From: an uncultured virus (IMG/VR IMGVR_UViG_3300027896_000015)
Taxonomy: Duplodnaviria > Heunggongvirae > Uroviricota > Caudoviricetes
DNA length: 64,000 nucleotides
Virus record (IMG/VR): IMGVR_UViG_3300027896_000015
Direction: 5' to 3' (one strand)
Every line of letters starts with the position of its first letter. Positions within the stretch are counted from its first letter, which is position 1. The notes below the pieces were generated by a model. The model saw only the letters and a program-made list of their open reading frames with translations. It ran no database searches and had not been told where the DNA came from. Made by a program: the position numbers and the translations under genes. Shown piece by piece: positions 3,418-32,334 of the stretch.

Positions 3418-4752
3418 GTTGCCTTCTCCATGGAAAATCATGGAATCAGCTTTCACGGACCGCAGGGACTATAGGCTCCTGCCCCGCCTCCGGCCAATAG
3501 AACTTGTCCGGATGCGGACGCGCCCCCTTCGATCTTGCGACCGGAGGCAGCTTCAAGGCGATGTTCAGAGAGGCGTTCAGATCGGCGTCTGATGAAAGAC
3601 CACACTTGCCGCACCTGAACTTCTCTCCCTGACGGTTCGACTTGCGTGTCCATCCGCACCTGGAGCATCTCCGGCTGGTGTAGCCGGGCTGGACGAAGGA
3701 GATGCGGACGCCGCCCTCCTCCGCCAGAGATTCCAGCTTCCTTCTGATGACCGGATACGTCCAGTGCGACATCTTTCTGCTCGTTCTTTTTCCATTTCTA
3801 AGATGCTTGATGTTCTCCAAAACGATTTCTTTGATTCCTCCGAGATTCAGGGAGTTCAAAGCCCATTTGATGTGGTTGGCCCTGTGTCTGGAAGTTCTCT
3901 CGAAACCCTTGCTGCCCTTCTTCCTGCGGCAAAGCCTTTCCTGTATCTTCTCCAAAGTCCATCCGTGCCGGTCGGGCGTGCTGAAAGAACCGTCGCTGGC
4001 GGCGAACACCTTCCTCATGCCGATGTCGATTCCCAGGCGTTTTCCTTCGATTTTCTCGGGGGGTTTCGGCAGGTCGAACATGAAGGTCGCCTTGTTCGCA
4101 CCCAGCCTGACTCCCTTCTTGATAGTCCCTGCAGACTTCATTTCGTTGAAGTGGATGTTGCCTTTCAAAGGGACGACGATCTTCATCTTGCCGCCCAGGG
4201 ACGTCAAAGTCAGCCACATGTCGAAGGTTCCTCTGTTTTTCGGCTCCAGCTTGACGAATCTGGTATCCAGCTCGGGCTGGATGAAGGCATCCGGTTTGGA
4301 CATGACCGCTTTTTCGGCGATCCTGGCCAGCTTTCTGGCCTGCTTGAACTTGCCCTCCTTGTTCAGCTTCTTGACCATGTAGAGGCGCCTTTGCTGCTTG
4401 GCCTTGGTGCCTCGGACGATCCCCGAGGCCTGCTTGGCTGCCGCTTGGACGGCCCTCGCCGACAGCCATGTGTCGGACTTGTCGGTCATGTTTTTGGAGA
4501 AAAGAACGGGAACCTTTTCGGCGTTCCAAAGGATGTCGATGAAGAACTGGACGACCTTCTGATACTCGGCGATGAACTCTCCGATCTTCCGAATCTTGCC
4601 GGAATTGGAGAACTTCAGGGAGCATTGGGAACTTCGGATGATCGTTTTGCTGTTGACCTGGTCTTTCATCTTGTGGTATATTTCATCGCAACAGGGAGAC
4701 AAACCTTCCATCAAACGAAGATATTTTCTATGGAAGGCATGAAGGAATATGA
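3418..4752 (-). mobile_element. non-autonomous tnpB element
   Basis: Removing it plus one TA restores the host frame (V-Y-S-C); TA at both junctions; terminal hairpins TCCATG..CATGGA and CCTTCCAT..ATGGAAGG. Confidence 0.7.
3446..4669 (-). CDS. tnpB: TnpB / Cas12f-like RNA-guided nuclease
   Basis: RuvC-I LGIDIG, RuvC-II IVLENI, Zn finger CSRCG..CGKCG, RuvC-III DADLNASLNI; start taken at MKDQVNSK. Confidence 0.9.
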   Translation of the reverse strand: MKDQVNSKTIIRSSQCSLKFSNSGKIRKIGEFIAEYQKVVQFFIDILWNAEKVPVLFSKNMTDKSDTWLSARAVQAAAKQASGIVRGTKAKQQRRLYMVKKLNKEGKFKQARKLARIAEKAVMSKPDAFIQPELDTRFVKLEPKNRGTFDMWLTLTSLGGKMKIVVPLKGNIHFNEMKSAGTIKKGVRLGANKATFMFDLPKPPEKIEGKRLGIDIGMRKVFAASDGSFSTPDRHGWTLEKIQERLCRRKKGSKGFERTSRHRANHIKWALNSLNLGGIKEIVLENIKHLRNGKRTSRKMSHWTYPVIRRKLESLAEEGGVRISFVQPGYTSRRCSRCGWTRKSNRQGEKFRCGKCGLSSDADLNASLNIALKLPPVARSKGARPHPDKFYWPEAGQEPIVPAVRES

Positions 4753-4944
4753 TACTCCTGCGGACGCGCCGAGGGGATGTCGGGAGGCACGCTCTGCAAG
4801 CGGTGCGGCAACTGCCTGAGGGAGTACTTCGCGACGGTCGAGAGGATGAAGAAGGCCTGCAGGCGCTAGGCGATTTCAGGCTTGATTTTCGGCCCCGATT
4901 GTGCCACCATGTCCTCAAAAGGAAACGGAACAGAAGGGCTGTCC

Positions 4945-5736
4945 ATGTTAAAACACAACGCAATCTATCTTGGCGACTGCCTGGAAACGATGAAGCTGAT
5001 CGACGACGGATCCGTCGACCTCGTAGTCACGTCTCCTCCTTACTATCTCAACAAGGAGTACGAGAAAACGACGTCCTATGCGGAATACTGCCGCATGATG
5101 GAGATTGTCTTTCTGAGCACCAACAGAGTGCTGCGCGGCGGAGGCTATGCGGTGTTCAACTTCGGAGACTACTACAACAGCGGTAACAGGTTCTACAAGG
5201 CGGACGTTCCGGCATGCTATCCGGCGTCCATCAACTACTTCAGGTGGGGAGTGGAGAACGCCGGAATGGACCTTCAGGCCACCAGGATATGGCGCAAGCA
5301 GTTCGCCAGGATGGGCATCCCCTTCGTCTGCAACACACATCCTAGGCCTGTGTTCGACTACGAACACATCTGGACGTTCAGGAAAAGGAACGGCAACGGG
5401 GATGAATTTGTGTCGGACAGAAAGAAGACCCAGCGAGGGGTGGTCGGCAGCGACTGGACGTCGTCGGCCGGCATCGACAGCCACTGCGCCGCGTTCCCGG
5501 TCGAGCTCCCCGAGTGGGCGATCGATGTCTATTCCAAGCCGAATGCGCTTGTTCTGGACATGTTCGGAGGAAGCGGAACCACGGCGATAGCTTGCATTCG
5601 TTCCGGCAGGCGGTACATTCTGATTGAGAAGGACAAGCGGTACTGCGAGATGGCCAAGGAGCGCGTCGCGAAGGCCGTGAAGGAAGCCGCGGGATCGAAG
5701 GCGCTGTTCTCAGAAGACAAGCCCGTCGGACGCTAG
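4945..5736 (+). CDS. beta-class N4-cytosine/N6-adenine DNA methyltransferase
   Basis: GDCL, VTSPPY catalytic motif, H.A.FP, VLDMFGGSGTT SAM-binding motif. Confidence 0.92.
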   Translation: MLKHNAIYLGDCLETMKLIDDGSVDLVVTSPPYYLNKEYEKTTSYAEYCRMMEIVFLSTNRVLRGGGYAVFNFGDYYNSGNRFYKADVPACYPASINYFRWGVENAGMDLQATRIWRKQFARMGIPFVCNTHPRPVFDYEHIWTFRKRNGNGDEFVSDRKKTQRGVVGSDWTSSAGIDSHCAAFPVELPEWAIDVYSKPNALVLDMFGGSGTTAIACIRSGRRYILIEKDKRYCEMAKERVAKAVKEAAGSKALFSEDKPVGR

Positions 5737-7289: not shown

Positions 7290-7903
7290 ATTGTTCCGGC
7301 AAGTCGACGCAGGCATCCATACTGGCCACTAGAATCGAGGCGAGCGGACGCCCAGTCGTCATGACCAGGGAGCCGGGCGGCACAAGGATCGGCGAGACGC
7401 TGCGGTCGATCATCAAGGATCCTCCTGAGACGCTGAGCCGACGGGCAGACGTGTTCCTGTTCGAGGCGTGCCGGTGCCAGATCGTCGACCTCGTCATCAG
7501 GCCCGCGCTGGAGGACGGCATGGTTGTCATCTGCGACCGGTTCATCGACTCGACGATCGCCTATCAAGGATTCGGAAAAGGCATTGATTCTGGTCTCTTA
7601 GCCAAAATGAACATGTTTGCGGTGGATGGCTTGGTCCCAGACTTGTCAATCTTTATCGACGTTCCAGTGGAGACCTGTGCGTCAAGAATGGTGTCTCGAC
7701 CTGGAACCCCAAAGGATCAATATGAACGGGCTGGATGCGAGTTTCAAGAGAAGGTTAGACACGGCTTCATAAGTGTCGCATCCGCACATGATAGGTTCAT
7801 GACCGTCGACGGCATAGGAATGCCAGATGATATAGGAGACAAAATATGGCTTCGCGTTTCAGACGTTTTGAATCGGCTTTTGCCGCTGTCTTCTGTATGC
7901 TAA
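7253..7903 (+). CDS. tmk: thymidylate kinase
   Basis: FITFEGIDCSGKST P-loop, TREPGG, CDRFIDSTIAYQG. Confidence 0.95.
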   Translation: MQKGVFITFEGIDCSGKSTQASILATRIEASGRPVVMTREPGGTRIGETLRSIIKDPPETLSRRADVFLFEACRCQIVDLVIRPALEDGMVVICDRFIDSTIAYQGFGKGIDSGLLAKMNMFAVDGLVPDLSIFIDVPVETCASRMVSRPGTPKDQYERAGCEFQEKVRHGFISVASAHDRFMTVDGIGMPDDIGDKIWLRVSDVLNRLLPLSSVC

Positions 7904-8793
7904 TGCCCACCTTTGGTGGTGAGTCCATTAGTCTCTATTGGGAAAATGACGTCGTTTTCGTCACTGACAGATACTACACCCAAGGAACTAGGCTGCAATA
8001 CTCGCAGTGGGGCCGCACGGACAACATCTCGATCTTCTCGGACGACATACCCCTGCTTTTCTGCGATGGGACTGCGTCCAAGCGAGAATATTGGATCCAA
8101 CAGCTGATGTACACTCCCGAGAACATCAAAATCGCCGAGCCTCAAATGGGATCCCGTCCGTGGTGCGGCATCCTGACCGCTGGATATCGGGAGACTAAGG
8201 GAAGCCCGACGTTGGCCGATTCCTTTGAAATCCAATTGGGTGCCGTCGGCCCTGAATCGTACGCCGAGGAGACCCAGGAGTGGTTCCACGACGTCACGGG
8301 AAGCCGTCCGCCTGCTGGATGGGGAAACCAGATCGACACCGTCTACGGCGGAACGGCGATCCGCAGCCGACACTGGAGGCCGTGGTCCGTCGGATCGGAC
8401 ATGAAGTGCGATGCGACGTTTTCCGGTTCGGCGGCTTTGGGAAACTTCTTCACATATGCCGAAGCCGGGGCGGTCGCGAGGGCTGGTATGCGTCCTCCTG
8501 ACGATCTTGGAGAGATATTTATCGGCCCCCGAGTCCCGGACAGGTGGTCGGCATACGTCCTTGGAGGAATCAAGGGACGGGCGGTAGCCAGGAACATAGC
8601 CCTGGACGGCGACACGATCGGATACGACTCCGACACCGAAAAGAGGCCGCTGGTGGGAGACGCGTTCGCGGGATTCGGCGCGCGCCTGATGGGGGCGGAT
8701 TTGACGTTCATCTACACATGGAGAACCGATGAGTTCTACGGGCAGAAATACGACAACGGGTTCGGTTCGCTGTCCCTATCGGCGATCTTCTAA
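7846..8793 (+). CDS. LpxR/DUF2219-family outer-membrane beta-barrel (lipid A 3'-O-deacylase-like)
   Basis: Signal-like N-terminus, WENDV..TDRYYTQG, QLMYTP, RPWCG, GAVGP.S.AE.TQ..FH, GW.NQI, C-terminal Phe; start uncertain. Confidence 0.8.
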   Translation: MASRFRRFESAFAAVFCMLMPTFGGESISLYWENDVVFVTDRYYTQGTRLQYSQWGRTDNISIFSDDIPLLFCDGTASKREYWIQQLMYTPENIKIAEPQMGSRPWCGILTAGYRETKGSPTLADSFEIQLGAVGPESYAEETQEWFHDVTGSRPPAGWGNQIDTVYGGTAIRSRHWRPWSVGSDMKCDATFSGSAALGNFFTYAEAGAVARAGMRPPDDLGEIFIGPRVPDRWSAYVLGGIKGRAVARNIALDGDTIGYDSDTEKRPLVGDAFAGFGARLMGADLTFIYTWRTDEFYGQKYDNGFGSLSLSAIF

Positions 8794-11774: not shown

Positions 11775-11940
11775 CGCAAAGCGCGAAGGCAGGCAGCTGT
11801 TCATCCGCAGAGGCAAGAAGACCGTCCGCCTCGACGGTCCTCAGATCAGGGCTCTGAAATGCCTGCTGCGCGACGTCGGCGAGTTCGGCAACAGGATCAA
11901 CAGGCAGCGCTGCAAGATCACGGACGAGATACTGATCTAG
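11680..11940 (+). CDS. small basic hypothetical protein
   Basis: SD GGAGG; overlaps the end of the upstream ORF. Confidence 0.55.
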   Translation: MSAIISKCSRIWGFHKGRKTSMTYQRPVSSNDAKREGRQLFIRRGKKTVRLDGPQIRALKCLLRDVGEFGNRINRQRCKITDEILI

Positions 11941-11960
11941 CAATCGCGATGAAAAATGTG

Positions 11961-11989
11961 TTGACGCAGGCAGGAATTTCTGCTACCAT
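11961..11989 (+). promoter_or_regulatory. sigma70-like promoter of tRNA cluster 1
   Basis: TTGACG-17-TACCAT with TG extension. Confidence 0.75.
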
Positions 11990-12021
11990 TTGAGAACAAA
12001 CGGTGGAGAAAGAGAAAAGCA

Positions 12022-12066
12022 ATGTACACGATTCCAGAACATCGGATTGAGGAGCCCCCGCAATAG
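12022..12066 (+). CDS. leader peptide 1 (MYTIPEHRIEEPPQ)
   Basis: 14-codon ORF between promoter and terminator; codons match the downstream tRNAs. Confidence 0.75.
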   Translation: MYTIPEHRIEEPPQ

Positions 12067-12147
12067 GGCGGCCGATCGGTTGCTGTTCTGGAAAAGAACG
12101 ACAAGATGAGGCCGCCTCCAGCGGAAGCTGAGGGCGGCTTTTGTTTT
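12040..12147 (+). promoter_or_regulatory. attenuator 1 (antiterminator/terminator)
   Basis: Terminator 12110-12147 with GGAA loop and T run; 12066-12073 GGGCGGCC can pair with 5' arm GGCCGCCT. Confidence 0.75.
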
Positions 12148-12150
12148 AAC

Positions 12151-12227
12151 TGGCGCGTAGCTCAACTTGGTAGAGCAGCTCTCTGATGAGGAGCCGGTCG
12201 TGGGTTCGACTCCCGCCGCGCCAACCA
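12151..12227 (+). tRNA. tRNA-Ile(GAT)
   Basis: Cloverleaf, loop CTGATGA, encoded CCA. Confidence 0.9.
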
Positions 12228-12237
12228 TTGCGTACAT

Positions 12238-12314
12238 GTTGGCCGTAGCTCAACTGGAAGAGCGCCAGACTGTGGATCTGGCCGTTGCGGGTTCGAATCC
12301 CGTCGGTCAACCCA
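12238..12314 (+). tRNA. tRNA-His(GTG)
   Basis: G-1:C73, loop CTGTGGA, CCA. Confidence 0.95.
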
Positions 12315-12328
12315 GTTTTGATGAGGAA

Positions 12329-12405
12329 GCCTCTGTCGTCTAAATGGACAGGATTTGTGGTTCTCAGCCACAGGATTGCGGGTTCGAACCCCGCCGGAGG
12401 CGCCA
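12329..12405 (+). tRNA. tRNA-Glu(CTC)
   Basis: Loop TTCTCAG, CCA. Confidence 0.9.
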
Positions 12406-12412
12406 AAGATAC

Positions 12413-12489
12413 GACCCAGTGGACGAACTGGAAGAGTCGGCAGCCCTTCAAGCTGCAGTTTGGGGGTTCAACTCCCCTCTGGGTCGCCA
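12413..12489 (+). tRNA. tRNA-Glu(TTC), C33
   Basis: Stem GCAGC/GCTGC, loop CCTTCAA, CCA. Confidence 0.8.
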
Positions 12490-12511
12490 ACGTAAACGGA
12501 AAGGCGAAGCG

Positions 12512-12706
12512 ATGAAAACAAAATGCGACTACTGCGGGAAGGAGCCTCCGAAGCAGACCGACTGCTGGCCGACATGGTTCGGCAGATACCGGGACGGAGA
12601 ACTGGTGTCGGTGATCTGCAAGCGGTGCTTTACTGAAAACGGGAACTCGTGGGACAAGACGATTGTTTCAAGGAACAAAAAACAGGGGTTGGCCCAGTCT
12701 AGTTAG
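12512..12706 (+). CDS. small CxxC..CxxC protein inside the tRNA cluster
   Basis: MKTKCDYCG...ICKRC; 3' end overlaps tRNA-Pro. Confidence 0.5.
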   Translation: MKTKCDYCGKEPPKQTDCWPTWFGRYRDGELVSVICKRCFTENGNSWDKTIVSRNKKQGLAQSS

Positions 12707-12760
12707 GGCGCCTCCTCGGGGGGGAGGAAGTCGCCGGAGCGGAGCCGGCACCCCTGACCA
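12683..12760 (+). tRNA. tRNA-Pro(GGG), C33
   Basis: Stem CCTCC/GGAGG, loop TCGGGGG, atypical T-loop AGCGGAG, CCA. Confidence 0.8.
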
Positions 12761-12764
12761 TTTT

Positions 12765-12841
12765 CTAGGAGTAGTTCAGTTCAGGAGAACGCGGCGTTCG
12801 GGTCGCCGAGGTCGCGGGAGCGAAGCCCGCCTCCTAGACCA
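12765..12841 (+). tRNA. tRNA-Pro(CGG)
   Basis: Loop TTCGGGT, T-loop AGCGAAG, CCA. Confidence 0.85.
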
Positions 12842-12849
12842 TTTTAAAT

Positions 12850-12928
12850 CCGAGAGTAGTTCAGCCCAGTTTAGAACGTCGCGTTTGGGGCGCGAAGGCC
12901 GCGGGAGCGAAGCCCGCCTCTCGGACCA
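12850..12928 (+). tRNA. tRNA-Pro(TGG)
   Basis: Loop TTTGGGG, T-loop AGCGAAG, CCA. Confidence 0.85.
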
Positions 12929-12981
12929 TTTTGATGTACCGAGCAGGTATGACATGAAGGTTGGTGAGAAATAAATATCGC

Positions 12982-13353
12982 ATGAAAATCATCCGCATCA
13001 TCGAATCCGAAGAACAAGAAGGCTGGATCGCCGTCGACCTTGACGGAACCCTGGCCGAATTCCACAAGTACGACCCCAAAGATCACTCGATCGGCAAGCC
13101 CGTCCCGAAGATGCTGGAACGCGTCAAGAAATGGCTGGACGAGGGCAGGGACGTCCGCCTGATGACGGCCAGGGCCGCGGCCGACGAGGATCGCGACGTC
13201 CATCTCAGGCTGATCAAGGAATGGATGCTGGAGCATCTCGGCAGGACGATCCCGATCACCTGCTCCAAGGATCAGCACATGATCGAGCTTTGGGACGACA
13301 GGGCCGTGCAGGTCGTCCCGAACACCGGAGAGAGGGCGGACGGCAAGGAATAG
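12982..13353 (+). CDS. HAD-family phosphatase (polynucleotide 3'-phosphatase-like)
   Basis: IAVDLDGTLA, LMTAR, K, LWDDR motifs. Confidence 0.85.
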   Translation: MKIIRIIESEEQEGWIAVDLDGTLAEFHKYDPKDHSIGKPVPKMLERVKKWLDEGRDVRLMTARAAADEDRDVHLRLIKEWMLEHLGRTIPITCSKDQHMIELWDDRAVQVVPNTGERADGKE

Positions 13354-13373
13354 CTTCTCCGTTAAAACAGCAC

Positions 13374-13402
13374 TTGACTTCCAGCATTATTTATGGTACA
13401 TT
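13374..13402 (+). promoter_or_regulatory. sigma70-like promoter
   Basis: TTGACT-17-TACATT with TG extension. Confidence 0.65.
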
Positions 13403-13445
13403 CATCTTCATCAAACAGCAGCGAGAAAGGCGACAGGGCACCCCA

Positions 13446-13766
13446 ATGAAAAAACAAAGCGACGTGGCGGTCAAGTTCAAGCGCGACATGAAGTTCAGAT
13501 ATGCCGGCAGGGCGGCGGCTGATGCCGCCATCAAGTCCGGATCGTCATCGTTTGCGGACGCCGCCAAGAAAATCCGAAGACGTCATTGGATGGCCGGGAA
13601 CGAGTTTTTCATCCAGCTTTTCAGTTTGTGCAGGACTCGGGAAGATGTGGATGCCGCCATGTCGGCCCTCAGCCTTTATCCTCCGAAGTCGCCGACGTGG
13701 AGCTTGTGTATGGTCAACGACGCTGAAACCAGAATGGTGATGCGCGTCGCGGACGCCACATCGTAA
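13446..13766 (+). CDS. hypothetical protein, paralog 1 of 3
   Basis: Shared G..AAD.A...G ... W..G..FF..LF..C ... PPK.P. Confidence 0.75.
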   Translation: MKKQSDVAVKFKRDMKFRYAGRAAADAAIKSGSSSFADAAKKIRRRHWMAGNEFFIQLFSLCRTREDVDAAMSALSLYPPKSPTWSLCMVNDAETRMVMRVADATS

Positions 13767-13801
13767 TCGTTCGCGCCAACCCGCAAGAGGCCTGGCAGAC
13801 C

Positions 13802-14146
13802 ATGAAAAAACAGGAAAACAGGATCATCATTTTTCGAATCCCAACGCTGAAGCAAATCGGAGCGCAGCTCAAACACAACAGGAAGTTAAGAAATACTGGG
13901 AAAGCCGCTGCTGATTCCGCCATCGCCTCCGGAATATTTTCGTTTACGGAGACGGCCAAGAAGATGCGAAGACATCATTGGGTGACGGGCTACGCATTCT
14001 TCATGAGGCTTTTTGACTCCTGCAAGACTTTGCCAGAGGCAAAATCAGCTTTGGCGGCTTTTGATCTTCACCCGCCGAAATGCCCCTGGCCGATCATGTT
14101 CACGTTTCGACAAGTGGAGTCTGAGATGATGGAACGCGTTTCCTGA
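13802..14146 (+). CDS. hypothetical protein, paralog 2 of 3
   Basis: Same motif. Confidence 0.75.
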   Translation: MKKQENRIIIFRIPTLKQIGAQLKHNRKLRNTGKAAADSAIASGIFSFTETAKKMRRHHWVTGYAFFMRLFDSCKTLPEAKSALAAFDLHPPKCPWPIMFTFRQVESEMMERVS

Positions 14147-14192
14147 TGGCGCATCTTGTGGACGTTAGCGTGTCAGCTGCGGGGATTGTGAT

Positions 14193-14552
14193 ATGGTGAT
14201 CCCAATGAAAGCAAAGAACATACGGAGAAAGTCTCCAGAAATTACCGAGAAATATGTCGCCGAACTGCGTCGCAGGAACGTCCGTCATCGCGAATCCGGG
14301 ACGAATGCCGCTGACGCCGCCGTCCGTTTCGGCGTGTTCGCATACAGCCGAGCGTCACAGGCGTTACGCAATAGAAGCTGGGTAGCGGGATACGCATTTT
14401 TCCGCAGGCTATTCGAGTCCTGCAGAAACAAGCGTCAATTCGTCGCCGCATGCGAGGCCTTCGACAGGCATCCGCCGAAGTGTCCCCCGCCAATGATGGC
14501 TATCTTGAGGTCGGCCGCCGCGGACGCCGCTGCGGCCGCCGGCTGTCGCTAG
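14193..14552 (+). CDS. hypothetical protein, paralog 3 of 3
   Basis: Same motif. Confidence 0.75.
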   Translation: MVIPMKAKNIRRKSPEITEKYVAELRRRNVRHRESGTNAADAAVRFGVFAYSRASQALRNRSWVAGYAFFRRLFESCRNKRQFVAACEAFDRHPPKCPPPMMAILRSAAADAAAAAGCR

Positions 14553-15730
14553 GACGCCTGTCCCATTTGGATCAAGGCGGTCGCGTCTTCGTCGTCTATC
14601 AGCCTGCCTTGGTCGAAGCCCTCGGAAAAGGCCGTCTCCAGCATGGCATTGATGTTCTCGTTCTTGACCTGGGCGGCGGCCAGCCTCTGCATCATCTCCT
14701 GGGATGATCGTACGCGTTCCGTCATGTTGGTGAGTATCTTGTTCGCATACGGCTTCATGTCTATATGGACGACCATCGTCTGCGCATGCCAGTCGCCAGG
14801 AACCTTCCCCTTCTGATTAACGACGCGGCGGAGGTCGAATTTTTCCTCGTGATCCCTGATCTTGTCGGCAAGCTCCTTGAGTTCCTCTCCCAAACCCAGG
14901 TTTGCCATGACGCCAGACACCTCGCTGCGCTTGGTCAGTTCGAACGTCTTCTTTTTCGGGGATATGACATAGTTGGATGACTCCTCGTTCGTTATGTCCG
15001 AGAACCACCGGATGGCGTTCATCAGCGTCGCGACCTCGGCGCCGGTGACGTGCAGGTGGTAGACGGTCTCCCAGTTGCCGTGCTGCGCCCCGACGGACTT
15101 GATCCATCCGCTGCCGTTCCTGGCGATGAACCCAGCCGCGTTCAGCATGCGCACAATCTGGTCTGCGTTCGTCGGCGTCCTGGCGGCGTATTGCTGAGCC
15201 GGAGCGTATACGTGCCGTTCAGACGGCTTGTCGATGCGGGCGCGAATGAGCCCTGTGAACTCCCCTTGCAGTTCGTTCATGGCGATGCCGTTCATGGTCG
15301 GCACGAGGTGCGGCTTGCTGGGATGGAAAACGAACGAGGTTCCGAGGCGGAACTTTCTGTCGGCCGCAATGTACGGATCGACAGCCGTGCGGAATTTCGG
15401 CGACACCCTGTACAACTGGAAGAAGGCGTCGTGCACGATCGCCTGCGCTTCGCTGTCGTCCACCGCCACGTTGTTGACGCGCAGCGTGGCGTCGTCCCCT
15501 TGCTTGAAAGCTATGGCGTTCGACAGGGCCTGTTCGTCAAAAGACCCTGGGATGCCGTTGGCGGCCTGAGTTTCGGCAGCCGGCGCTTCGGCGGCCGACT
15601 TATGCAACCCTTGAGCCGACGACGTCAGAATCCTGCTCTGCAGCCAGCCTGTTTTCAGGCCGAGAAACTTCCAAAACGTCCGCGACATGGTCAGCCTCTT
15701 TCCGTCCTTTGAAACCGCTATCTTGATCAT
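14549..15730 (-). CDS. hypothetical protein (probable virion-associated)
   Basis: 393-aa ORF coupled to the radical SAM gene; N-terminus similar to that of 5733-6620. Confidence 0.75.
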   Translation of the reverse strand: MIKIAVSKDGKRLTMSRTFWKFLGLKTGWLQSRILTSSAQGLHKSAAEAPAAETQAANGIPGSFDEQALSNAIAFKQGDDATLRVNNVAVDDSEAQAIVHDAFFQLYRVSPKFRTAVDPYIAADRKFRLGTSFVFHPSKPHLVPTMNGIAMNELQGEFTGLIRARIDKPSERHVYAPAQQYAARTPTNADQIVRMLNAAGFIARNGSGWIKSVGAQHGNWETVYHLHVTGAEVATLMNAIRWFSDITNEESSNYVISPKKKTFELTKRSEVSGVMANLGLGEELKELADKIRDHEEKFDLRRVVNQKGKVPGDWHAQTMVVHIDMKPYANKILTNMTERVRSSQEMMQRLAAAQVKNENINAMLETAFSEGFDQGRLIDDEDATALIQMGQAS

Positions 15731-16536
15731 GATTTTCTCCCCCTTCTTTGTCTCCTGTTGAACGACCTAAACTGGCGTCTCCACGTCCTCGACAGCAGGT
15801 CCTTGTCGCACTTGGCGACATAGAGCTGGTAGAAGCCGCACTTGGGGCAGACGTCCTTGAACTGTGCGATCATCGATTCCACTGTGACGTCCCCGATATC
15901 CTTGACGGCGATGTCCAGGCCGAAGACCCTGGCGATGCCCGCCGCTATGCTGCAGCAATAGAAGCCCCTGTAGTCGTATCCCAGGCCGCACAGGCGGCCT
16001 CCGAGATGGCACCCCTTATAGTCGTGCTTCCGGCTCATCTTAGGGTCGTCCACGGGCGCCAGGCAGACGGCATACCGGTGTTCCCGAGGCTTCTCCTTCA
16101 TTGTGTCCAAGACGACCAGGTCGGGGTACTGCTTGAGCATCCTTTCGACCTTCTCAAAATGGACCGGATGATGGTAGGTGTAGGTCCCGGAGTAGCATTT
16201 CGGATTGTACAGCCTTTTGTACCGCATGATCGCGTGGATCAGATCCTCGAACCTCGGATGCATGGTCGGCTCGCCCCCGGTCAGGGTGATGCGCGTCCAT
16301 ATCCGTCCGGTCTTGCCGCATTTCTCCAGCATGGCGGCCAGGACGTCAGGATCGACGTCCTCGTTGTGGCCAGCCGGCGCCAAGCTCGTGAAGCGGTTGC
16401 AGTTCGGGCATCTCCGGTCGCAGACGTAGGTGGTCTCGACCTTCAGGTGGGGCATCCGGGGCGTGTAGTACCCCTCCGCCTCGACGTACGGCCTGTCAAG
16501 ACAGGGGCGGAATACAATAGGCTGTCGCGATCGCAT
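15727..16536 (-). CDS. radical SAM protein
   Basis: CDRRCPNC (CxxxCxxC), LTGGEPTMHP, C-terminal Cys cluster. Confidence 0.9.
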   Translation of the reverse strand: MRSRQPIVFRPCLDRPYVEAEGYYTPRMPHLKVETTYVCDRRCPNCNRFTSLAPAGHNEDVDPDVLAAMLEKCGKTGRIWTRITLTGGEPTMHPRFEDLIHAIMRYKRLYNPKCYSGTYTYHHPVHFEKVERMLKQYPDLVVLDTMKEKPREHRYAVCLAPVDDPKMSRKHDYKGCHLGGRLCGLGYDYRGFYCCSIAAGIARVFGLDIAVKDIGDVTVESMIAQFKDVCPKCGFYQLYVAKCDKDLLSRTWRRQFRSFNRRQRRGRKS

Positions 16537-16608
16537 ATACTATGTTTCTCAGAAAGGCCGGGCTTTTCCCTTGCGTTTTTCATCCCGGATGTGGTACGAT
16601 GCTGCCGA

Positions 16609-17166
16609 ATGGACATTCCGTCTAAGACTGTCATGGAGCTCAGGAAAAGGACGGGTCTTCCCGTGATGGACTGCAAAAGGGCGCTGCAGCAGTCCCAAGG
16701 GAACTCAGCCCAGGCGATCATTCTGCTCCGCAGCCAAGGGCACAGGGTCTCGCCCGCCGGAGACCAAGGATCCTCCGGGTTCGGCATGATCGCCATGTAC
16801 AACCATTTCTTCGGGAAGATCGGGGCCATGGTCGAGGTCAGATGCCAGACGGACTTCGCCGCCAAGACGCCGGAGTTCATCAAGCTGTGCAACCACATCG
16901 CCATGCACGTCGCCTGGGCCAAGCCCAAGCACATATCGAGGGACGACGTCCCCCCGGCCGTCATCGAATGCATGGTGGGGGAATTCCAGGAGGTCTTCGA
17001 GAAATACTGTTCGGAAGCCTGCCTGATGGACCAGCTTGAGATGAAGGCCAGCCAGGGCACGAAAACGATCGGCCAGATGATCGCCGAGGAGTCGCACAGG
17101 CTGGGGGAGAAGATCACAGTGGTGCGGTTTTCCAGATTCGCTCTGGGGGAATCCGATGCCCATTGA
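16609..17166 (+). CDS. tsf: short-type translation elongation factor Ts
   Basis: ELRKRTGLPVMDCKRAL, VEVRCQTDFAAK, IAMHVA..P, LGEKITVVRFSRFALGE; promoter TTGCGT-18-TACGAT at 16571-16600. Confidence 0.92.
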   Translation: MDIPSKTVMELRKRTGLPVMDCKRALQQSQGNSAQAIILLRSQGHRVSPAGDQGSSGFGMIAMYNHFFGKIGAMVEVRCQTDFAAKTPEFIKLCNHIAMHVAWAKPKHISRDDVPPAVIECMVGEFQEVFEKYCSEACLMDQLEMKASQGTKTIGQMIAEESHRLGEKITVVRFSRFALGESDAH

Positions 17167-17608
17167 CGCCAAAACAGCCGCCCAGATGCGCGACTTCGCT
17201 TTCGGTAAGCCGAAGGAGAAGCCTGTTCAGGCCGTCGACAGCCGCCATGTTCTGCTGTCGGCCTGCGCCATGGCCGTCCAAAAGATGTCCGCGTCGTCCG
17301 ATCCCGCGAAAGCGGCGCGGGAGATGCATGTCAGGGTCCGCGAAGGAGGACTGAACGAGTTCTTCAAGCTGCTGCGCGAACTGGGGTCGTCCTGCAGCGA
17401 CGACGCCTTCGTCTTGGCTGACGCCGTAAACGAGGACGCCCGATCGTCGTTCTTGAAGTCCGTCGTCCTGCTGTCAGTCAAGGACATGGAGGAGTTCCTG
17501 GAGTGGATGCTGTCGATTGTCTCCAAATTGGAGACGGCTGATATTCCTCCTATCGGAGCCAAGCAGAAGCCCGTATGCGAATGGAGCGACCATGAGCCGG
17601 CTGGCTGA
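17156..17608 (+). CDS. hypothetical protein
   Basis: Overlaps the tsf stop. Confidence 0.65.
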   Translation: MPIDAKTAAQMRDFAFGKPKEKPVQAVDSRHVLLSACAMAVQKMSASSDPAKAAREMHVRVREGGLNEFFKLLRELGSSCSDDAFVLADAVNEDARSSFLKSVVLLSVKDMEEFLEWMLSIVSKLETADIPPIGAKQKPVCEWSDHEPAG

Positions 17609-17804
17609 AAAAATCGAACGGAGAAGGGCGGCGAGGGGGGCGGCCAGGGCGCGTTCGCGCGCGTCCAGCGGGGAGGCGTACATCTTGAGGGCAAGAGAGA
17701 CGTACCGAAGCCGGCATCCGGACGGGATCAGAGGAGGGGCGATAGTGCGGACCTTGGAGGATAAGGCGGCGATCGCGCCGATGATGTTCCGGCTGCTTTT
17801 TTGA
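17592..17804 (+). CDS. small Arg-rich hypothetical protein
   Basis: SD GGAG; coupled to upstream ORF. Confidence 0.5.
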   Translation: MSRLAEKIERRRAARGAARARSRASSGEAYILRARETYRSRHPDGIRGGAIVRTLEDKAAIAPMMFRLLF

Positions 17805-17813
17805 AAAATATGG

Positions 17814-17842
17814 TTGACTTTGGCAGGAATTTGTGGGATCAT
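17814..17842 (+). promoter_or_regulatory. sigma70-like promoter of tRNA cluster 2
   Basis: TTGACT-17-GATCAT; spacer shares GGCAGGAATTT with the cluster-1 promoter. Confidence 0.65.
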
Positions 17843-17870
17843 TCGAGTACAAGTGAATGAGGAAGAACAC

Positions 17871-17944
17871 TGCGGAATAGAGCAATAGTAGCTCGTCGGG
17901 TCCATACCCCGGAGTTCTGGGTGCGAATCCCAGTTCCGCTACCA
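17871..17944 (+). tRNA. initiator-type tRNA-fMet(CAT), C33
   Basis: 1:72 mismatch, three G-C pairs in the anticodon stem, loop TCCATAC, CCA. Confidence 0.85.
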
Positions 17945-17962
17945 GTTTTTGGAGATCGAAGA

Positions 17963-18046
17963 ATGCTGACCGTAGGAACAAAGGCAGTGAAAGCCGCGGG
18001 TGCGACGAAAGTCGCCACCCGGCAGGGGCTTTCCGTCTTTGTCTAA
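17963..18046 (+). CDS. leader peptide 2 (MLTVGTKAVKAAGATKVATRQGLSVFV)
   Basis: SD GGAG at 17951; codons 3-19 are only T/V/G/K/A, matching the downstream tRNAs. Confidence 0.8.
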   Translation: MLTVGTKAVKAAGATKVATRQGLSVFV

Positions 18047-18110
18047 TCGGAACAGACATAGTCGGACAAGAAGGAAGGCCCCGTCGGAAGACGAGGGCCT
18101 TTTTTGTTTT
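17989..18110 (+). promoter_or_regulatory. attenuator 2 (1:2, 2:3 and 3:4 hairpins)
   Basis: GAAAGCC 17989-17995 / GGCTTTC 18027-18033; GGGGCTTTCC 18025-18034 / GGAAGGCCCC 18073-18082; terminator 18075-18110 with GGAA loop and T run. Confidence 0.8.
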
Positions 18111-18144
18111 CAGCGTTTGTCGAAACGGTCGAGAGCAGTGAAAT

Positions 18145-18234
18145 GCAGGCGTGTCCGAACTGATTGAAGGGCTCAGACTCTTAATCTGATTGGCATTAGC
18201 CACGCTGCAGGTTCGAATCCTGCCGCCTGCACCA
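18145..18234 (+). tRNA. tRNA-Lys(CTT) with long variable arm
   Basis: Stem TCAGA/TCTGA, loop CTCTTAA, V-arm TGGC-ATTA-GCCA, CCA. Confidence 0.8.
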
Positions 18235-18243
18235 TGATCGTTT

Positions 18244-18319
18244 AGGCGGATGGCGCAACTGGATGCGCGCCTGGTCTACACCCAGGAGGATGCGGGTTCG
18301 AGTCCCGCTCCGCCTACCA
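18244..18319 (+). tRNA. tRNA-Val(TAC), C33
   Basis: Stem CCTGG/CCAGG, loop TCTACAC, CCA. Confidence 0.85.
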
Positions 18320-18370
18320 AGGAGATGGTCATGCAGAAGAGACTGAAACGGTGCGTCAGACGACAGCCAT

Positions 18371-18446
18371 CCGAGCGTAGCTCAGACGGCAGAGCACCGG
18401 TCTTTTAAACCGGGGCGCGCGGGTTCGATTCCCGCCGCTCGGACCA
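18371..18446 (+). tRNA. tRNA-Lys(TTT)
   Basis: Loop CTTTTAA, CCA. Confidence 0.92.
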
Positions 18447-18478
18447 TCTTTGAACGGATCTTTGACAACAGAATATGC

Positions 18479-18554
18479 GCCAACGTAATTCAAATTGGGA
18501 GAATACTCGGCCCGTACCCGAGATACGAGAGTTCAATTCTCTCCGTTGGCTCCA
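18479..18554 (+). tRNA. tRNA-Thr(CGT), C33
   Basis: Stem CTCGG/CCGAG, loop CCCGTAC, CCA. Confidence 0.85.
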
Positions 18555-18556
18555 AT

Positions 18557-18632
18557 GCGACGGTAACTCAATTGGTAGAGTGCTATCCCTCCAAGTTAGC
18601 TGTTGTGGGTTCAAGTCCCATCCGTCGCTCCA
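18557..18632 (+). tRNA. tRNA-Gly(TCC), C33
   Basis: Loop CCTCCAA, T73, CCA. Confidence 0.85.
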
Positions 18633-18636
18633 CTTC

Positions 18637-18712
18637 GCCGATGTAGCTCAAATGGTAGAGTACCTGACCTGTAATCAGGGGGTTGTCGGATCATGCCCGA
18701 CCATCGGCTCCA
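18637..18712 (+). tRNA. tRNA-Thr(TGT), C33
   Basis: Stem CCTGA/TCAGG, loop CCTGTAA, CCA. Confidence 0.85.
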
Positions 18713-18769
18713 ATTTTGGCTCCAGTATGTCCACAAAACGGGGACATACCGGCAACGCGTTTGTGTTTT

Positions 18770-18844
18770 GGGCCAGTAGCATTAATGGCTAATGCACCTC
18801 GTCCGCACCGAGGATTTTTGTCAGTTCGAATCTGACCTGGTCCA
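18770..18844 (+). tRNA. tRNA-Ala(CGC), C33
   Basis: G3:U70, loop TCCGCAC, no encoded CCA. Confidence 0.85.
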
Positions 18845-18864
18845 CTCATGCTAATGAATCAAAC

Positions 18865-18936
18865 GGGGGCTTGGCCTAGATGGATGGGCGGTGGCTTTGC
18901 AAGCCACATAGGTGGGATCGTTACCCACAGCTTCCA
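18865..18936 (+). tRNA. tRNA-Ala(TGC)
   Basis: Stem GTGGC/GCCAC, loop TTTGCAA, G3:U70, divergent T-loop, no encoded CCA. Confidence 0.75.
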
Positions 18937-18940
18937 TTTC

Positions 18941-19014
18941 GCGGACATGATGTAGTGGCAACATAGATTCTTGCCGAGAATCATTCGTGAGTTCGAACCT
19001 CACTGTCCGCTCCA
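18941..19014 (+). tRNA. tRNA-Gly(GCC)
   Basis: Loop TTGCCGA, T73, CCA. Confidence 0.9.
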
Positions 19015-19081
19015 CGTTCGACGAGATAACGGTTGCACAACGCATCCAGATCGTGGTATAATGCCCGCGAAAGGACGCTAT

Positions 19082-19735
19082 ATGGTCACGCTTCAATTCG
19101 ACGGATGCTGCCTGCCGTACAACCCGGGAGGGATCGCCTGCGGCGGCTTCGTCCTTCTGGACGGCAACAGGGAGATCGCTTCCGGCGCCGAGGTCGTATC
19201 CGAGCACGGGACGAACAACGAGGCCGAATATGCCGGCTTGGAGCTGGGCCTGTGGAAGGCCAAGGAGTTCGGAATCCGCAGAATGGAGGCCGTGGGCGAC
19301 TCCATGCTGGTCGTCATGCAGGTGTCTGGGGAATGGGCCGTCAAGTCGCCGTCGATGGCCGAATGCGTCGGCAGATGCCGGAAGCTGATTAAAGGCTTCA
19401 GCAGCTTCGAGATCGATTGGATCCCCCGCGAGGAGAACCGCCGCGCCGACCGTATTGTGCACAAACGCTGGATGGACGCGTTCGAAAGCAGGAGCCTTGA
19501 TGCCTCCGCGTCCATCGGAGCCGACTGCATGTCTCTGGCGGGAGGCGGAAAGCTCTACGTGGTCGGCAGCCAGCGATATCTGGTCGATCCCAGGAAGCCG
19601 TCATGTTCGTGCCGGGACTTCGAGAACAAGAACCGCTCGCCGCTGCTGGAGCGCAGCCGGCTGGTCGCCAGATGCAAGCATATTTTGGCCGCGCAGAGGG
19701 AGATGAAGGCCGAAACCATCAGGGGGCAGGCTTGA
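19082..19735 (+). CDS. RNase HI-family protein with C-terminal SWIM zinc finger
   Basis: FDG...NPG, TNNEAEY.GL, GDS.LV..Q..G.W, WIPREEN.RAD; CSC.DF...CKH; promoter TTGCAC-18-TATAAT at 19033-19062. Confidence 0.9.
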   Translation: MVTLQFDGCCLPYNPGGIACGGFVLLDGNREIASGAEVVSEHGTNNEAEYAGLELGLWKAKEFGIRRMEAVGDSMLVVMQVSGEWAVKSPSMAECVGRCRKLIKGFSSFEIDWIPREENRRADRIVHKRWMDAFESRSLDASASIGADCMSLAGGGKLYVVGSQRYLVDPRKPSCSCRDFENKNRSPLLERSRLVARCKHILAAQREMKAETIRGQA

Positions 19736-19863: not shown

Positions 19864-21240
19864 GTCAGCTTCTGCCGGGGCTAAAGCCCCGCAGATTGCA
19901 GGCCCAAGGCACCCACAATCGGCCGGCTGACACGGCCTGCCCATAAGGTCTGCCTTCCCCTTTCGGGGGAAGCGGAGGATACGGGGAGATGCGACGTTCT
20001 CGACCACTTCTGCGCGATGTTGATCGCGGCGTTATGGTCGGCGTCCAATTGGACGCCGTCGCTGGCGTAGTACCTGCATCCCCTTCTCACGCCTCGGGCG
20101 ATTCCTCTGGAATCGTCCTGCGACGTGTAGGCGGGGTTAACCGTCTCCACCCTCCTGCCGAGGGATCGTGCCTTGTAGGTCAACATTGTTTTGAACCCGT
20201 AGAAAGGAATCTGCGAAAGCATGTTGTTGTGGCGCCGTCCTTGGCGAACCGTATGCCTCTTGATCTTGGACAGGTCTTCGAGAACCAGCACGTCGGCCCT
20301 CGTCGTCGAGAGAACGGCGTTGGCGAGAAGATGCATCTCGTTCTTGGAGAAGTTACGCTCTTTCCTTCGCATGGCCTTCAGCTTCCTTCTGGCGGAGTGA
20401 GACATGGACTTCTTGGACTGCATCATCCGCTTGTTGTACCGGATGCGTCTTTTGGCGCGCAAAAAGGCGTCCGACTTGAACATCACGCCTTCGCTGGTCA
20501 CGGCCAGCCTGCGCTGGCCGAGATCGATGCCCGCACAGAGAGAGGACTCATGATCAAGGCAGGGGATCTCGAAGCTCATGGCCAGCCAGAACGTTCCTCC
20601 ACGTTCGAAGACGAGCGGATCCAGCATGACGTGCCTGGACATCATCTTGGACAGCCTGGGATACGTATCGATTCTGAATCTCTCCCTCTTGCCTCCGAGT
20701 ACGGAAATTTTGGCGACGTTTCCTGGAAGCATCCTGAAGATGCGGCAGTCGAGCCTCATGGCAAGGTTTGTCATGGACGGAACTTCCTTGACGGATTCTT
20801 TCCACCTTTTGCCTTCGTTGCTTTTGATCGCCTTCCAGGCGGACAAAGCGGCCTGCCTCGCCTTGATGGCGACCTGGGATTTCATTCCTGGAATCCTCAT
20901 GCATTCCTTGTAGGTCCTGGAATGGACGATCTTCTGGTCGAGAATCTTCCTGTCATCCAGATGCTCGAAGATGTATTTGCTGACGATGTCGAAAGCCTGG
21001 CTGTGGGCCGCGAGGGTCTCGTGAAGCTTGGCTTCGACGGGCTTGTCCTCGGCTTCTATTCTGGCAACCCATGTTCTGATGCCTATCTGCATATTATGTT
21101 TATTCTTCAGCGTTCGACGGATTTCCTGCTTGATCTGAAAGATTTTTTGTGTTATTTTTTGTTGTGAAGAACAGGAGAAAGGACATGCGGCGATTTCTCA
21201 GCCAGGGCAGAGACCCTGCGGTATTCTCGCCGAAGATTCG
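19864..21240 (-). mobile_element. IS200/IS605-type tnpB-only element A
   Basis: Both ends homologous to element 45642-47008; TCAT precedes the left end; right end GGGGCTTTAGCCCC hairpin...TGAC. Confidence 0.85.
19881..21092 (-). CDS. tnpB: TnpB (zinc finger absent)
   Basis: AGIDLG, LVLEDL, VNPAYTSQ, LDADHNAAINI. Confidence 0.92.
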   Translation of the reverse strand: MQIGIRTWVARIEAEDKPVEAKLHETLAAHSQAFDIVSKYIFEHLDDRKILDQKIVHSRTYKECMRIPGMKSQVAIKARQAALSAWKAIKSNEGKRWKESVKEVPSMTNLAMRLDCRIFRMLPGNVAKISVLGGKRERFRIDTYPRLSKMMSRHVMLDPLVFERGGTFWLAMSFEIPCLDHESSLCAGIDLGQRRLAVTSEGVMFKSDAFLRAKRRIRYNKRMMQSKKSMSHSARRKLKAMRRKERNFSKNEMHLLANAVLSTTRADVLVLEDLSKIKRHTVRQGRRHNNMLSQIPFYGFKTMLTYKARSLGRRVETVNPAYTSQDDSRGIARGVRRGCRYYASDGVQLDADHNAAINIAQKWSRTSHLPVSSASPERGRQTLWAGRVSRPIVGALGLQSAGL

Positions 21241-22407: not shown

Positions 22408-22484
22408 GGGCACTTAGCTCAGTTGGGAGAGCGTTGCTTCGACACAGCAAAGGTTCACAGGTTCGATCCCTGTAGTGCCCACCA
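22408..22484 (+). tRNA. tRNA-Val(GAC), C33
   Basis: Stem TTGCT/AGCAA, loop TCGACAC, CCA. Confidence 0.9.
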
Positions 22485-31948: not shown

Positions 31949-32334
31949 GACCTTGACTGGGCCTCTATATACTTTTGGATCGCTTCCGCGCTGACGTTTC
32001 CGGCGGTGGACGCAAAATAAGAGCGGGTCCACATGCACGGAAGCTTCTTCAGATCCGAAAACTCCCTCCTGAGGAAGTACGATGTGATGCCCTTGCACTC
32101 CTTGACGATCTCGCTGGCCGGAACCGTCGGAAACGAACGGATGAAGAGATGGATGTGATCCGGCTGCGCCGACAGCTCCAAGACGGTCCAAGCCATCTGG
32201 TCGCATTTTTCCCGGATAAGCTCCTCGCATCTGTCCTTGATCTTTCCCAGCAGCGCAGGCTTGCGCCGCTTCACGCACCAGATCAGATGATAGACGATCA
32301 GGTGCACCCGATGTTCGTCTCTGATATAGTCCAT
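31945..32334 (-). CDS. tnpA: Y1 HUH transposase TnpA
   Basis: YHLIWCVK.R, PDHIHLF (HUH), W.RSYF..T.G, I.KYIE.Q. Confidence 0.95.
   Translation of the reverse strand: MDYIRDEHRVHLIVYHLIWCVKRRKPALLGKIKDRCEELIREKCDQMAWTVLELSAQPDHIHLFIRSFPTVPASEIVKECKGITSYFLRREFSDLKKLPCMWTRSYFASTAGNVSAEAIQKYIEAQSRS

Follow-up and report, generated by a model that had tools for sequence, protein, structure and literature searches.

A predicted codon-matched leader-peptide attenuator ahead of a tRNA gene cluster in an uncultured Caudoviricetes virus

Introduction

Leader-peptide attenuation is a textbook mechanism, but all descriptions of it known to us concern genes for amino-acid synthesis or charging. Here, a candidate of this kind is reported ahead of a block of seven tRNA genes (cluster 1) in a stretch of DNA from an uncultured virus of the Caudoviricetes (IMG/VR record IMGVR_UViG_3300027896_000015). 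The whole stretch of 64,000 nucleotides (nt) that was analysed is called the window. The element comprises a promoter, a leader open reading frame (ORF) of 14 codons at 12022-12066, and a terminator hairpin immediately before the first tRNA gene. Judged from its sequence and from folding models, it is likely to be a ribosome-mediated leader-peptide transcription attenuator, which would place the tRNA block under demand-driven negative feedback on its own transcription. The seven tRNAs would probably be made only when ribosomes decode the matching codons slowly.

The closest described systems are the amino-acid operon attenuators of enterobacteria (trpL, hisL, thrL, ilvL, leuL, and pheL), in which, according to PMC1183508, a promoter is followed by a short ORF that carries the regulatory codons, as is the case here. 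The present locus is also like them in its 1:2 hairpin, 2:3 antiterminator, and 3:4 terminator, in a stop codon placed so that segment 2 would be masked, and in the kinetic read-through that its model calls for. In contrast, those attenuators control biosynthetic enzymes and use a run of one amino acid, whereas the element described here is phage-borne, has tRNA genes as its cargo, and would sense the product itself. Its leader mixes four amino acids and seven isoacceptors, and the match appears to reach synonymous codons.

Leader translation also reports a single charged tRNA and controls a translation or charging gene in the case of pheM of the E. coli pheST operon and rtpLP of the B. subtilis anti-TRAP operon. 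Both of these leaders control protein genes and sense one amino acid, and neither has a tRNA gene downstream. T-box riboswitches likewise monitor tRNA status by antitermination in a 5' leader. However, they bind uncharged tRNA directly, without a ribosome, and control aminoacyl-tRNA synthetase or amino-acid genes, whereas the present element would work through a ribosome and act on tRNA genes.

A full-text literature search, with subscription-only papers and supplements outside its reach, returned no description of leader-peptide attenuation of tRNA genes. The terms 'attenuat', 'leader', and 'terminator' do not occur in the available main text of the paper on huge phages (PMC7162821), and 'attenuat' and 'leader' are absent from the available text of an opinion article on phage tRNAs (PMC11025619) and of two papers on phage tRNAs versus tRNA-cleaving defences (PMC10264068 and PMC11555353). 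The available text of a survey of bacterial attenuators (PMC2965389) contains neither 'tRNA gene' nor 'tRNA operon'. The best reading of the locus is a known mechanism with a new cargo, that is, the same device with a sensor that spells out its own cargo. Because the sensor codons list the tRNAs under control, the product would be measured by being used.

Results and Discussion

Organization of the leader region and cluster 1

The region ahead of cluster 1 (module 1) contains the following elements.

11950-11957, + strand: A-rich block TGAAAAAT just 5' of the -35 element, recognized by alignment with a counterpart in module 2 at 17802-17809; a possible UP-like element
11961-11989, + strand: sigma-70-like promoter TTGACG-17 nt-TACCAT with TG before the -10 element (9/12 match)
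11996-12021, + strand: 5' untranslated leader
12022-12066, + strand: leader ORF (leader 1) of 14 codons, encoding the peptide MYTIPEHRIEEPPQ and a stop codon
12031-12060, + strand: putative sensor codons ATT CCA GAA CAT .. ATT GAG GAG CCC CCG
12032-12093, + strand: predicted hairpin '1:2' (-30.4 kcal/mol, by folding), in which 12032-12059 pairs with 12066-12093
12066-12073, + strand: predicted antiterminator core GGGCGGCC, beginning at the last base of the stop codon
12108-12147, + strand: predicted intrinsic terminator with an interrupted GC-rich hairpin at 12108-12141 (-25 kcal/mol) and the U-tract TTTTGTTTT at 12139-12147
12110-12117, + strand: terminator 5' arm GGCCGCCT

An original prediction, made by reading the sequence without database searches, had placed a promoter ahead of a 14-codon leader, and both elements were found at these positions. 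The leader reads ATG TAC ACG ATT CCA GAA CAT CGG ATT GAG GAG CCC CCG CAA TAG, and transcription presumably starts near 11996. The 156-nt leader region has a folding energy of -57.9 kcal/mol (z = -3.9), and none of 200 shuffled sequences was as stable. Only 3 nt separate the end of the U-run (12147) from the start of tRNA-Ile (12151), which leaves no room for a separate promoter, and the next promoter-like site on the + strand is at 13374. An independent promoter after 12147, named in the original prediction as a finding that would speak against it, is thus not predicted anywhere before cluster 1. No T-box or other cis-regulatory Rfam family was detected in 11800-19200 at E<=1.

The genes downstream of the terminator are as follows.

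12151-12227, + strand: tRNA-Ile (GAT), with encoded CCA and G37 (ARAGORN, Rfam)
12239-12314, + strand: tRNA-His (GTG) (ARAGORN, Rfam)
12329-12405, + strand: tRNA-Glu (CTC) (ARAGORN, Rfam)
12413-12489, + strand: tRNA-Glu (TTC), with C33 (ARAGORN, Rfam)
12512-12706, + strand: ORF of 64 amino acids (aa) with two CxxC pairs, between the Glu and Pro tRNAs
12683-12760, + strand: tRNA-Pro (GGG), with C33 and T-loop AGCGGAG (ARAGORN only)
12765-12841, + strand: tRNA-Pro (CGG) (ARAGORN, Rfam)
12850-12928, + strand: tRNA-Pro (TGG) (ARAGORN, Rfam)

The seven tRNAs, with the anticodons read from the sequence earlier, were all called by ARAGORN at 12151-12928, and the Rfam tRNA model recovered six of them. 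The T-loops are unusual in all three Pro tRNAs (AGCGAAG or AGCGGAG; 12683-12928). The 64-aa ORF lies inside the putatively attenuated transcription unit, overlaps tRNA-Pro(GGG) with its 3' end, and has no PHROG or Pfam match.

Codon match between leader 1 and cluster 1

Codons were assigned to tRNAs by Watson-Crick and G:U pairing, and null codons were drawn from the usage of the phage itself (10,049 codons from 20 long ORFs). A cognate codon is present in leader 1 for each of the seven tRNAs of cluster 1, as had been claimed, and nine of the 13 codons after ATG are cognate. The probability of a 7/7 match from 13 random codons was 1.06e-5, and that of at least nine cognate codons among 13 was 7.3e-5. 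When Pro-GGG was excluded, the probability of a 6/6 match was 7.1e-5, and when U34 was allowed to read G as well, that of the 7/7 match was 1.3e-4. A test against codon usage, as had been proposed, thus bears out the view that chance is unlikely, with laxer rules giving 7.1e-5 to 1.3e-4. Among 989 small ORFs (8-20 codons, both strands of the window), a single one reached 7/7, namely the leader itself, and one reached 6/7.

Rare synonymous codons are used in leader 1: CCA makes up 9% of the Pro codons of the phage and ATT 15% of its Ile codons. The idea that the unmatched Tyr, Thr, Arg, and Gln codons mark lost tRNAs found no support, and ACG is read by the Thr-CGT of the second tRNA cluster. 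These codons may instead form a generic N-terminal spacer, because TAC-AC follows the start of two leaders in another phage, LR745208.1, which is described below.

Alternative pairings and the proposed switch

Nascent transcripts were folded with 28 nt masked around each A-site codon, and the switch was evaluated on the transcript up to 12124, that is, before the 3' arm of the terminator exists. Both pairings that had been proposed for the sequence at the stop codon were found by folding: GGGCGGCC can pair with GCCCCC at 12054-12059 or with the terminator 5' arm at 12110-12117 (duplex -20.3 kcal/mol). The 1:2, 2:3, and 3:4 pairings of module 1 are mutually exclusive. Without a ribosome, the codons pair with 12066-12093 and hide GGGCGGCC, and the 5' arm is mostly free (upstream-paired P 0.36). 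When the ribosome stalls anywhere between codons 12025 and 12055, pairing of GGGCGGCC with 12110-12117 has a P of 0.78-0.84. The upstream-pairing P of the 5' arm is 0.50 with the ribosome at CCG 12058; once the ribosome has moved to CAA or the stop codon, this P drops to 0.35, which matches the baseline of 0.35-0.36. The effective stall window takes in eight of the nine cognate codons.

We infer that the leader is translated, that the terminator is functional, and that stalling raises read-through. In the proposed mechanism, transcription would start from the promoter at 11961-11989, and a ribosome would translate the 14-codon leader while RNA polymerase heads to the terminator. If the Ile, His, Glu, and Pro codons are decoded fast, the ribosome would arrive at the stop codon and cover GGGCGGCC; the hairpin at 12108-12141 would then form together with its U-run, and transcription would stop 3 nt before tRNA-Ile. 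If a matching aminoacyl-tRNA is scarce, the ribosome would stall between 12025 and ~12055. Such a stall would keep the leader codons off GGGCGGCC, which could then pair with the terminator 5' arm, and the polymerase would read through and the seven tRNAs would be made. Each tRNA cluster would in this way restrain its own synthesis by a negative feedback that is addressed by codon.

A paralogous module with another leader and another cluster

A second module with its own tRNA cluster lies further downstream in the window.

17814-18110, + strand: module 2 overall
17814-17842, + strand: module 2 promoter
17871-17944, + strand: tRNA-Met, between the module 2 promoter and the leader ORF
17963-18046, + strand: leader 2 ORF, encoding the peptide MLTVGTKAVKAAGATKVATRQGLSVFV and a stop codon
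18071-18105, + strand: module 2 terminator hairpin, with a T-run to 18110
18145-19014, + strand: cluster 2, consisting of Lys-CTT, Val-TAC, Lys-TTT, Thr-CGT, Gly-TCC, Thr-TGT, Ala-CGC, Ala-TGC, and Gly-GCC

Leader 2 covers all nine tRNAs of cluster 2 (P = 1.1e-5). The two leaders discriminate between the clusters: leader 1 matches 7/7 tRNAs of its own cluster but 1/9 of cluster 2, and leader 2 matches 9/9 of its own but 0/7 of cluster 1, and in this respect the claim that each leader fits its own cluster was confirmed. Among 1387 ORFs of 15-40 codons, three reached 9/9 for cluster 2: leader 2 itself and, at 61.8 kb, a single ORF counted with two alternative starts. The latter ORF (39 codons, 61783-61902) was rejected as a chance match, lying in a low-GC stretch without promoter or terminator context. 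It serves as a reminder of the false-positive rate among longer ORFs.

The two modules were compared without gaps, gapped identity being uninformative since shuffled sequences reached 0.66. The promoter blocks are identical at 31 of 42 positions, and the stretch from CGGAAG to the T-run at 21 of 26. GACAAGA stands directly before both terminators, in agreement with the common terminator design noted earlier. The promoter word TTGACNNNGGCAGGAATTTNTG occurs at just two sites in the 64 kb, in module 1 and in module 2 (17814-17835), where 0.03 would be expected. Because the promoter and terminator chassis is common to both, modules 1 and 2 are regarded as paralogous, and their origins are not independent. 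Their leaders are unrelated. The original prediction had called the two attenuators independent, which is right for the leaders but wrong for the promoter and terminator. The window thereby holds a natural swap experiment, with two modules on one promoter and terminator chassis that differ only in leader and cargo.

The folding of module 2 follows the same pattern. Stalls at 17966-18011 keep the antiterminator (P at least 0.92), and from 18014 on P is 0.26-0.63. The run of matched residues in leader 2 ends at the 18011/18014 border, where stalling stops helping. Since the gene for tRNA-Met precedes leader 2, this tRNA would be made whether or not the attenuator terminates.

Matched leaders in the phage LR745208.1

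The best match to the large terminase (TerL) of the window in the phage collection was LR745208.1, a 485-kb uncultured phage (25% identity, 93% coverage, E 2e-35), which presumably comes from the project of the huge-phage paper. It has 36 tRNA matches, which lie in many small clusters sorted by amino acid (140000-178000 and 186000-202500). In seven of the 12 clusters examined, a short upstream ORF covers all of the tRNAs of its own cluster (3/3, 5/5, 3/3, 2/2, 2/2, 3/3, and 5/5); the seven ORFs were picked by eye from ORF lists, which is a selection step.

Leader MNSYTTSERERESDSERT: cluster Glu/Asp/Glu
Leader ...HGRDGGTLARGCGRVQRRRRIRPTT: cluster Arg x3, Gly x2
Leader MRFFTTTRTRTAGLTRKG: cluster Thr x3
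Leader ...QPRQQPQQQQQ: cluster Gln x2
Leader MNLSTHSTNTAPAATAACVVACVGPAAPPAA: cluster Pro/Ala
Leader MNQHLHHHCY: cluster Tyr/Cys/His
Leader ...SLKLELLLS...DL...: cluster Leu x5

When the seven leaders were reassigned to the seven clusters in all 5040 ways, only one assignment gave seven full covers, and it was the real one. Consensus-like promoters precede five of the seven matched modules. For the Met cluster and the two Ser clusters, no candidate leader ORF was seen, and in the Lys/Val/Arg and Ile/Phe clusters, promoter-proximal ORFs run into the tRNA and cover 1/3 and 1/2, respectively. The LR745208.1 modules are thus like those of the window in having a short ORF that covers its own cluster and, in five of the seven, a promoter, but their leader sequences are unrelated, their clusters are sorted by amino acid, and five further clusters lack a full match. 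The literature searched contained no account of these leaders.

ARAGORN also called a tRNA with a four-base anticodon (ttta) beside a tRNA-Met in LR745208.1, at 2333-2407 of the segment 140000-178000. This call is either an error or points to a tRNA of the frameshift type.

Search for relatives

The lineage is almost an orphan: scans of IMG/VR, the metagenome contigs, and the phage collection with neighbouring proteins and with words taken from the module returned no syntenic relative. A blastn search of the phage collection with 11900-13000 returned only tRNA-like pieces in four records. In IMG/VR, neither the upstream 377-aa protein, nor TerL, nor an EF-Ts-like protein encoded between the two clusters led to a relative. 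A 130-aa PNKP-like protein gave 17 IMG/VR loci, none of them with any tRNA; the promoter word gave two matches, both unrelated and without tRNAs; and the terminator word and the back-translated leader pattern gave none. Metagenome contigs searched with the EF-Ts-like protein yielded two short, distant contigs without gene context.

One relative, ~93% identical, was found in a sediment metagenome of another study when the contigs of four runs were compared. Its contig is 177 nt long and covers 11960-12133, and five of its eight substitutions are listed. The changes listed for the flanks of the ORF are four substitutions and two indels: a 4-nt insertion after 11994, two substitutions in the 5' untranslated region, and, in segment 2, two substitutions and a 1-nt deletion. 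Within the 45-nt ORF, the only one listed is a synonymous CGG>AGG exchange at a codon without a matching tRNA in the cluster. The leader frame, whose conservation in relatives had been named as decisive, is therefore kept in this relative. With the listed changes applied, the peptide stays the same and the switch retains its geometry: stalls at 12025-12055 give P 0.73-0.79, and the stop codon gives 0.07. The antiterminator P is 0.31 when the A site holds the second Pro codon. Beyond this relative, extra contig depth at 12124-12339 comes from tRNA look-alikes of other organisms.

Evaluation of the attenuator and alternative explanations

The core of the original prediction, a codon-matched attenuator, is upheld by a match beyond chance, leaders that discriminate between clusters, trp-type alternative pairings, the lack of another predicted promoter, and a frame conserved in the one relative. 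Several results weigh against it. The ribosome-binding site of leader 1 is poor and uncertain: the GGAG at 12005-12008 is 13 nt away from the ATG, and in the relative G12005A abolishes it, whereas the GAGA at 12012-12015, 6 nt before the ATG, is weaker. Pro-GGG (12683-12760) gave no match to the Rfam tRNA model even at E<=10; it has C33 and an unusual T-loop, and ARAGORN is its only caller. With the peptide held fixed, the probability that the choice among synonymous codons covers every isoacceptor is 0.078 for leader 1 and 0.008 for leader 2, so the match at the isoacceptor level is only suggestive for leader 1. The last matched codon, CCG 12058, sits at the edge of the effective stall window. 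Comparative evidence is thin, consisting of one short fragment of a relative.

The remaining points on this side concern the output of the switch. With the complete terminator at equilibrium, the terminator wins at every ribosome position (P 0.54-0.96), so read-through would require kinetic control of the trp kind. When 708 stretches of 90 nt were taken at random from the window, 80 (11%) could form a duplex with the 5' arm of -20.3 kcal/mol or lower, which means that the antiterminator pairing is not rare on its own. In LR745208.1, a gap of 7-51 nt separates the matched leaders from the first tRNA, and a hairpin followed by a U-run is present in only one of the seven matched modules (Gln), so the codon match in that phage may act via another output. 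A simple terminator scan of LR745208.1 at 186000-202500 listed none, which says little because the same scan lists neither of the two attenuator terminators of the window; we think that their interrupted stems account for this. On these grounds, the matched leader might be a true sensor whose output is not, or not only, intrinsic termination, and which affects how the tRNA precursor is processed, folded, or degraded, or whether Rho gains access, with the hairpin and U-run as a constitutive partial stop. We regard this as rather unlikely for the window, where both modules have a strong hairpin and a TTTTGTTTT run right before the tRNAs, the stop codon coincides with the complement of the 5' arm, and the matched codons fill the very window in which stalling frees that complement.

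A stalled ribosome cannot distinguish a missing tRNA from an uncharged one, and the classic amino-acid attenuators are built in the same way as this module. The leader could accordingly sense amino-acid supply through tRNA charging, either giving more tRNA in starved cells or being the relic of a captured amino-acid attenuator. The composition of the leaders makes this improbable. Four amino acids and seven isoacceptors are represented one to three times each, with no run of a single residue, and the codon set equals the downstream tRNA set in the two modules here and in seven of LR745208.1. The rare codons CCA and ATT are used so that every isoacceptor is covered. Extra tRNA, moreover, does not relieve an amino-acid shortage. 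There is also no match to a Rfam leader family (His, Thr, Leu, Trp, Phe, etc.), cmscan showing only tRNAs and sub-threshold chance matches.

A short ORF that merely happens to precede a leaky stop or a terminator of the usual kind, and tRNAs made by constitutive read-through, would fit the weak ribosome-binding site, the antiterminator complementarity that is not significant alone, and the 9/9 score that the ORF at 61783-61902 reached by chance. It can hardly be reconciled with a match probability of about 1e-5 in each of two modules, with the leader as the sole 7/7 ORF among 989, with cross-matches of 1/9 and 0/7, with a peptide kept in the relative, and with seven more matched modules in LR745208.1, and we consider coincidence very improbable.

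Equally hard to credit is the further suggestion that the module, through the E-P-P with which its leader ends, senses EF-P activity instead of tRNA supply. Two adjacent Pro codons do lie at 12055-12060, and Pro-Pro pairs can pause ribosomes (PMC8129111). However, once the second Pro codon has entered the A site, the antiterminator is half masked in the window (P 0.50) and, in the relative, for the most part (0.31). Leader 2 is without any Pro, and the Ile, His, and Glu codons would be left unexplained.

Genomic setting of the tRNA clusters

If the attenuator reading is true, it would give phages a simple, modular way to top up individual tRNA pools and would account for phage tRNA genes being split into small blocks. 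It would also bear on the role of phage tRNAs, for which codon compensation, the replacement of degraded host tRNAs, and escape from tRNA-cleaving defences come into question.

The window has a GC content of 57% and a phage-like gene content, which includes exonucleases and several TnpB-like proteins. Of the four sequencing runs listed for it, none is of RNA, and one, from a freshwater metagenome, contains the DNA almost in full and may be its source. The genes considered here are as follows.

1078-2331: RtcB RNA ligase, in the neighbourhood of the tRNA clusters
7846-8793: LpxR-like protein (lipid A deacylase family, Pfam E 2e-66)
12961-13353: small HAD/PNKP-phosphatase-like protein (130 aa), downstream of cluster 1
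15748-17166: 472-aa protein with an EF-Ts domain (Pfam E 4.9e-14), between both tRNA clusters
41177-42931: large terminase
3446-4963 (- strand), 19881-21092 (- strand), 30791-32278 (- strand), and 45790-46992 (+ strand): four TnpB/IS605-type 'transposase' ORFs

ARAGORN called 18 tRNA genes in the window, all on the + strand: seven at 12151-12928, Met at 17871, nine at 18145-19014, and a single Val at 22408, the last without a leader. Position 33, where U is almost invariant, is C in nine of the 18 tRNAs (those starting at 12413, 12683, 17871, 18244, 18479, 18557, 18637, 18770, and 22408). Together with G37 of tRNA-Ile(GAT), these C33 bases could have a decoding effect or act as a shield against anticodon-loop nucleases.

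RtcB and the PNKP-like protein near the tRNA clusters together hint at a tRNA-repair kit. A broader scheme, which is put forward only tentatively, is that large phages may run a demand-driven tRNA supply with one codon-coded sensor per block. Depletion of a particular host tRNA, for instance through an anticodon nuclease of the host or because the phage causes the host translation apparatus to decay, would switch on the matching block alone, and its replacement tRNAs, whose anticodon loops are altered (C33 in 9/18 here), might evade the nuclease. Counter-defence and translation take-over would then be served by one module, to which the RtcB, PNKP-like, and EF-Ts-like genes might also belong.

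In a protein search, the only homologues of the EF-Ts-like protein were eight weak matches to cellular EF-Ts. The LpxR-like protein, for which no close relative was present in the genome collection searched, suggests a Gram-negative host. One of the TnpB-like proteins was also searched, and its matches were just 25-35% identical and spread over many phyla.

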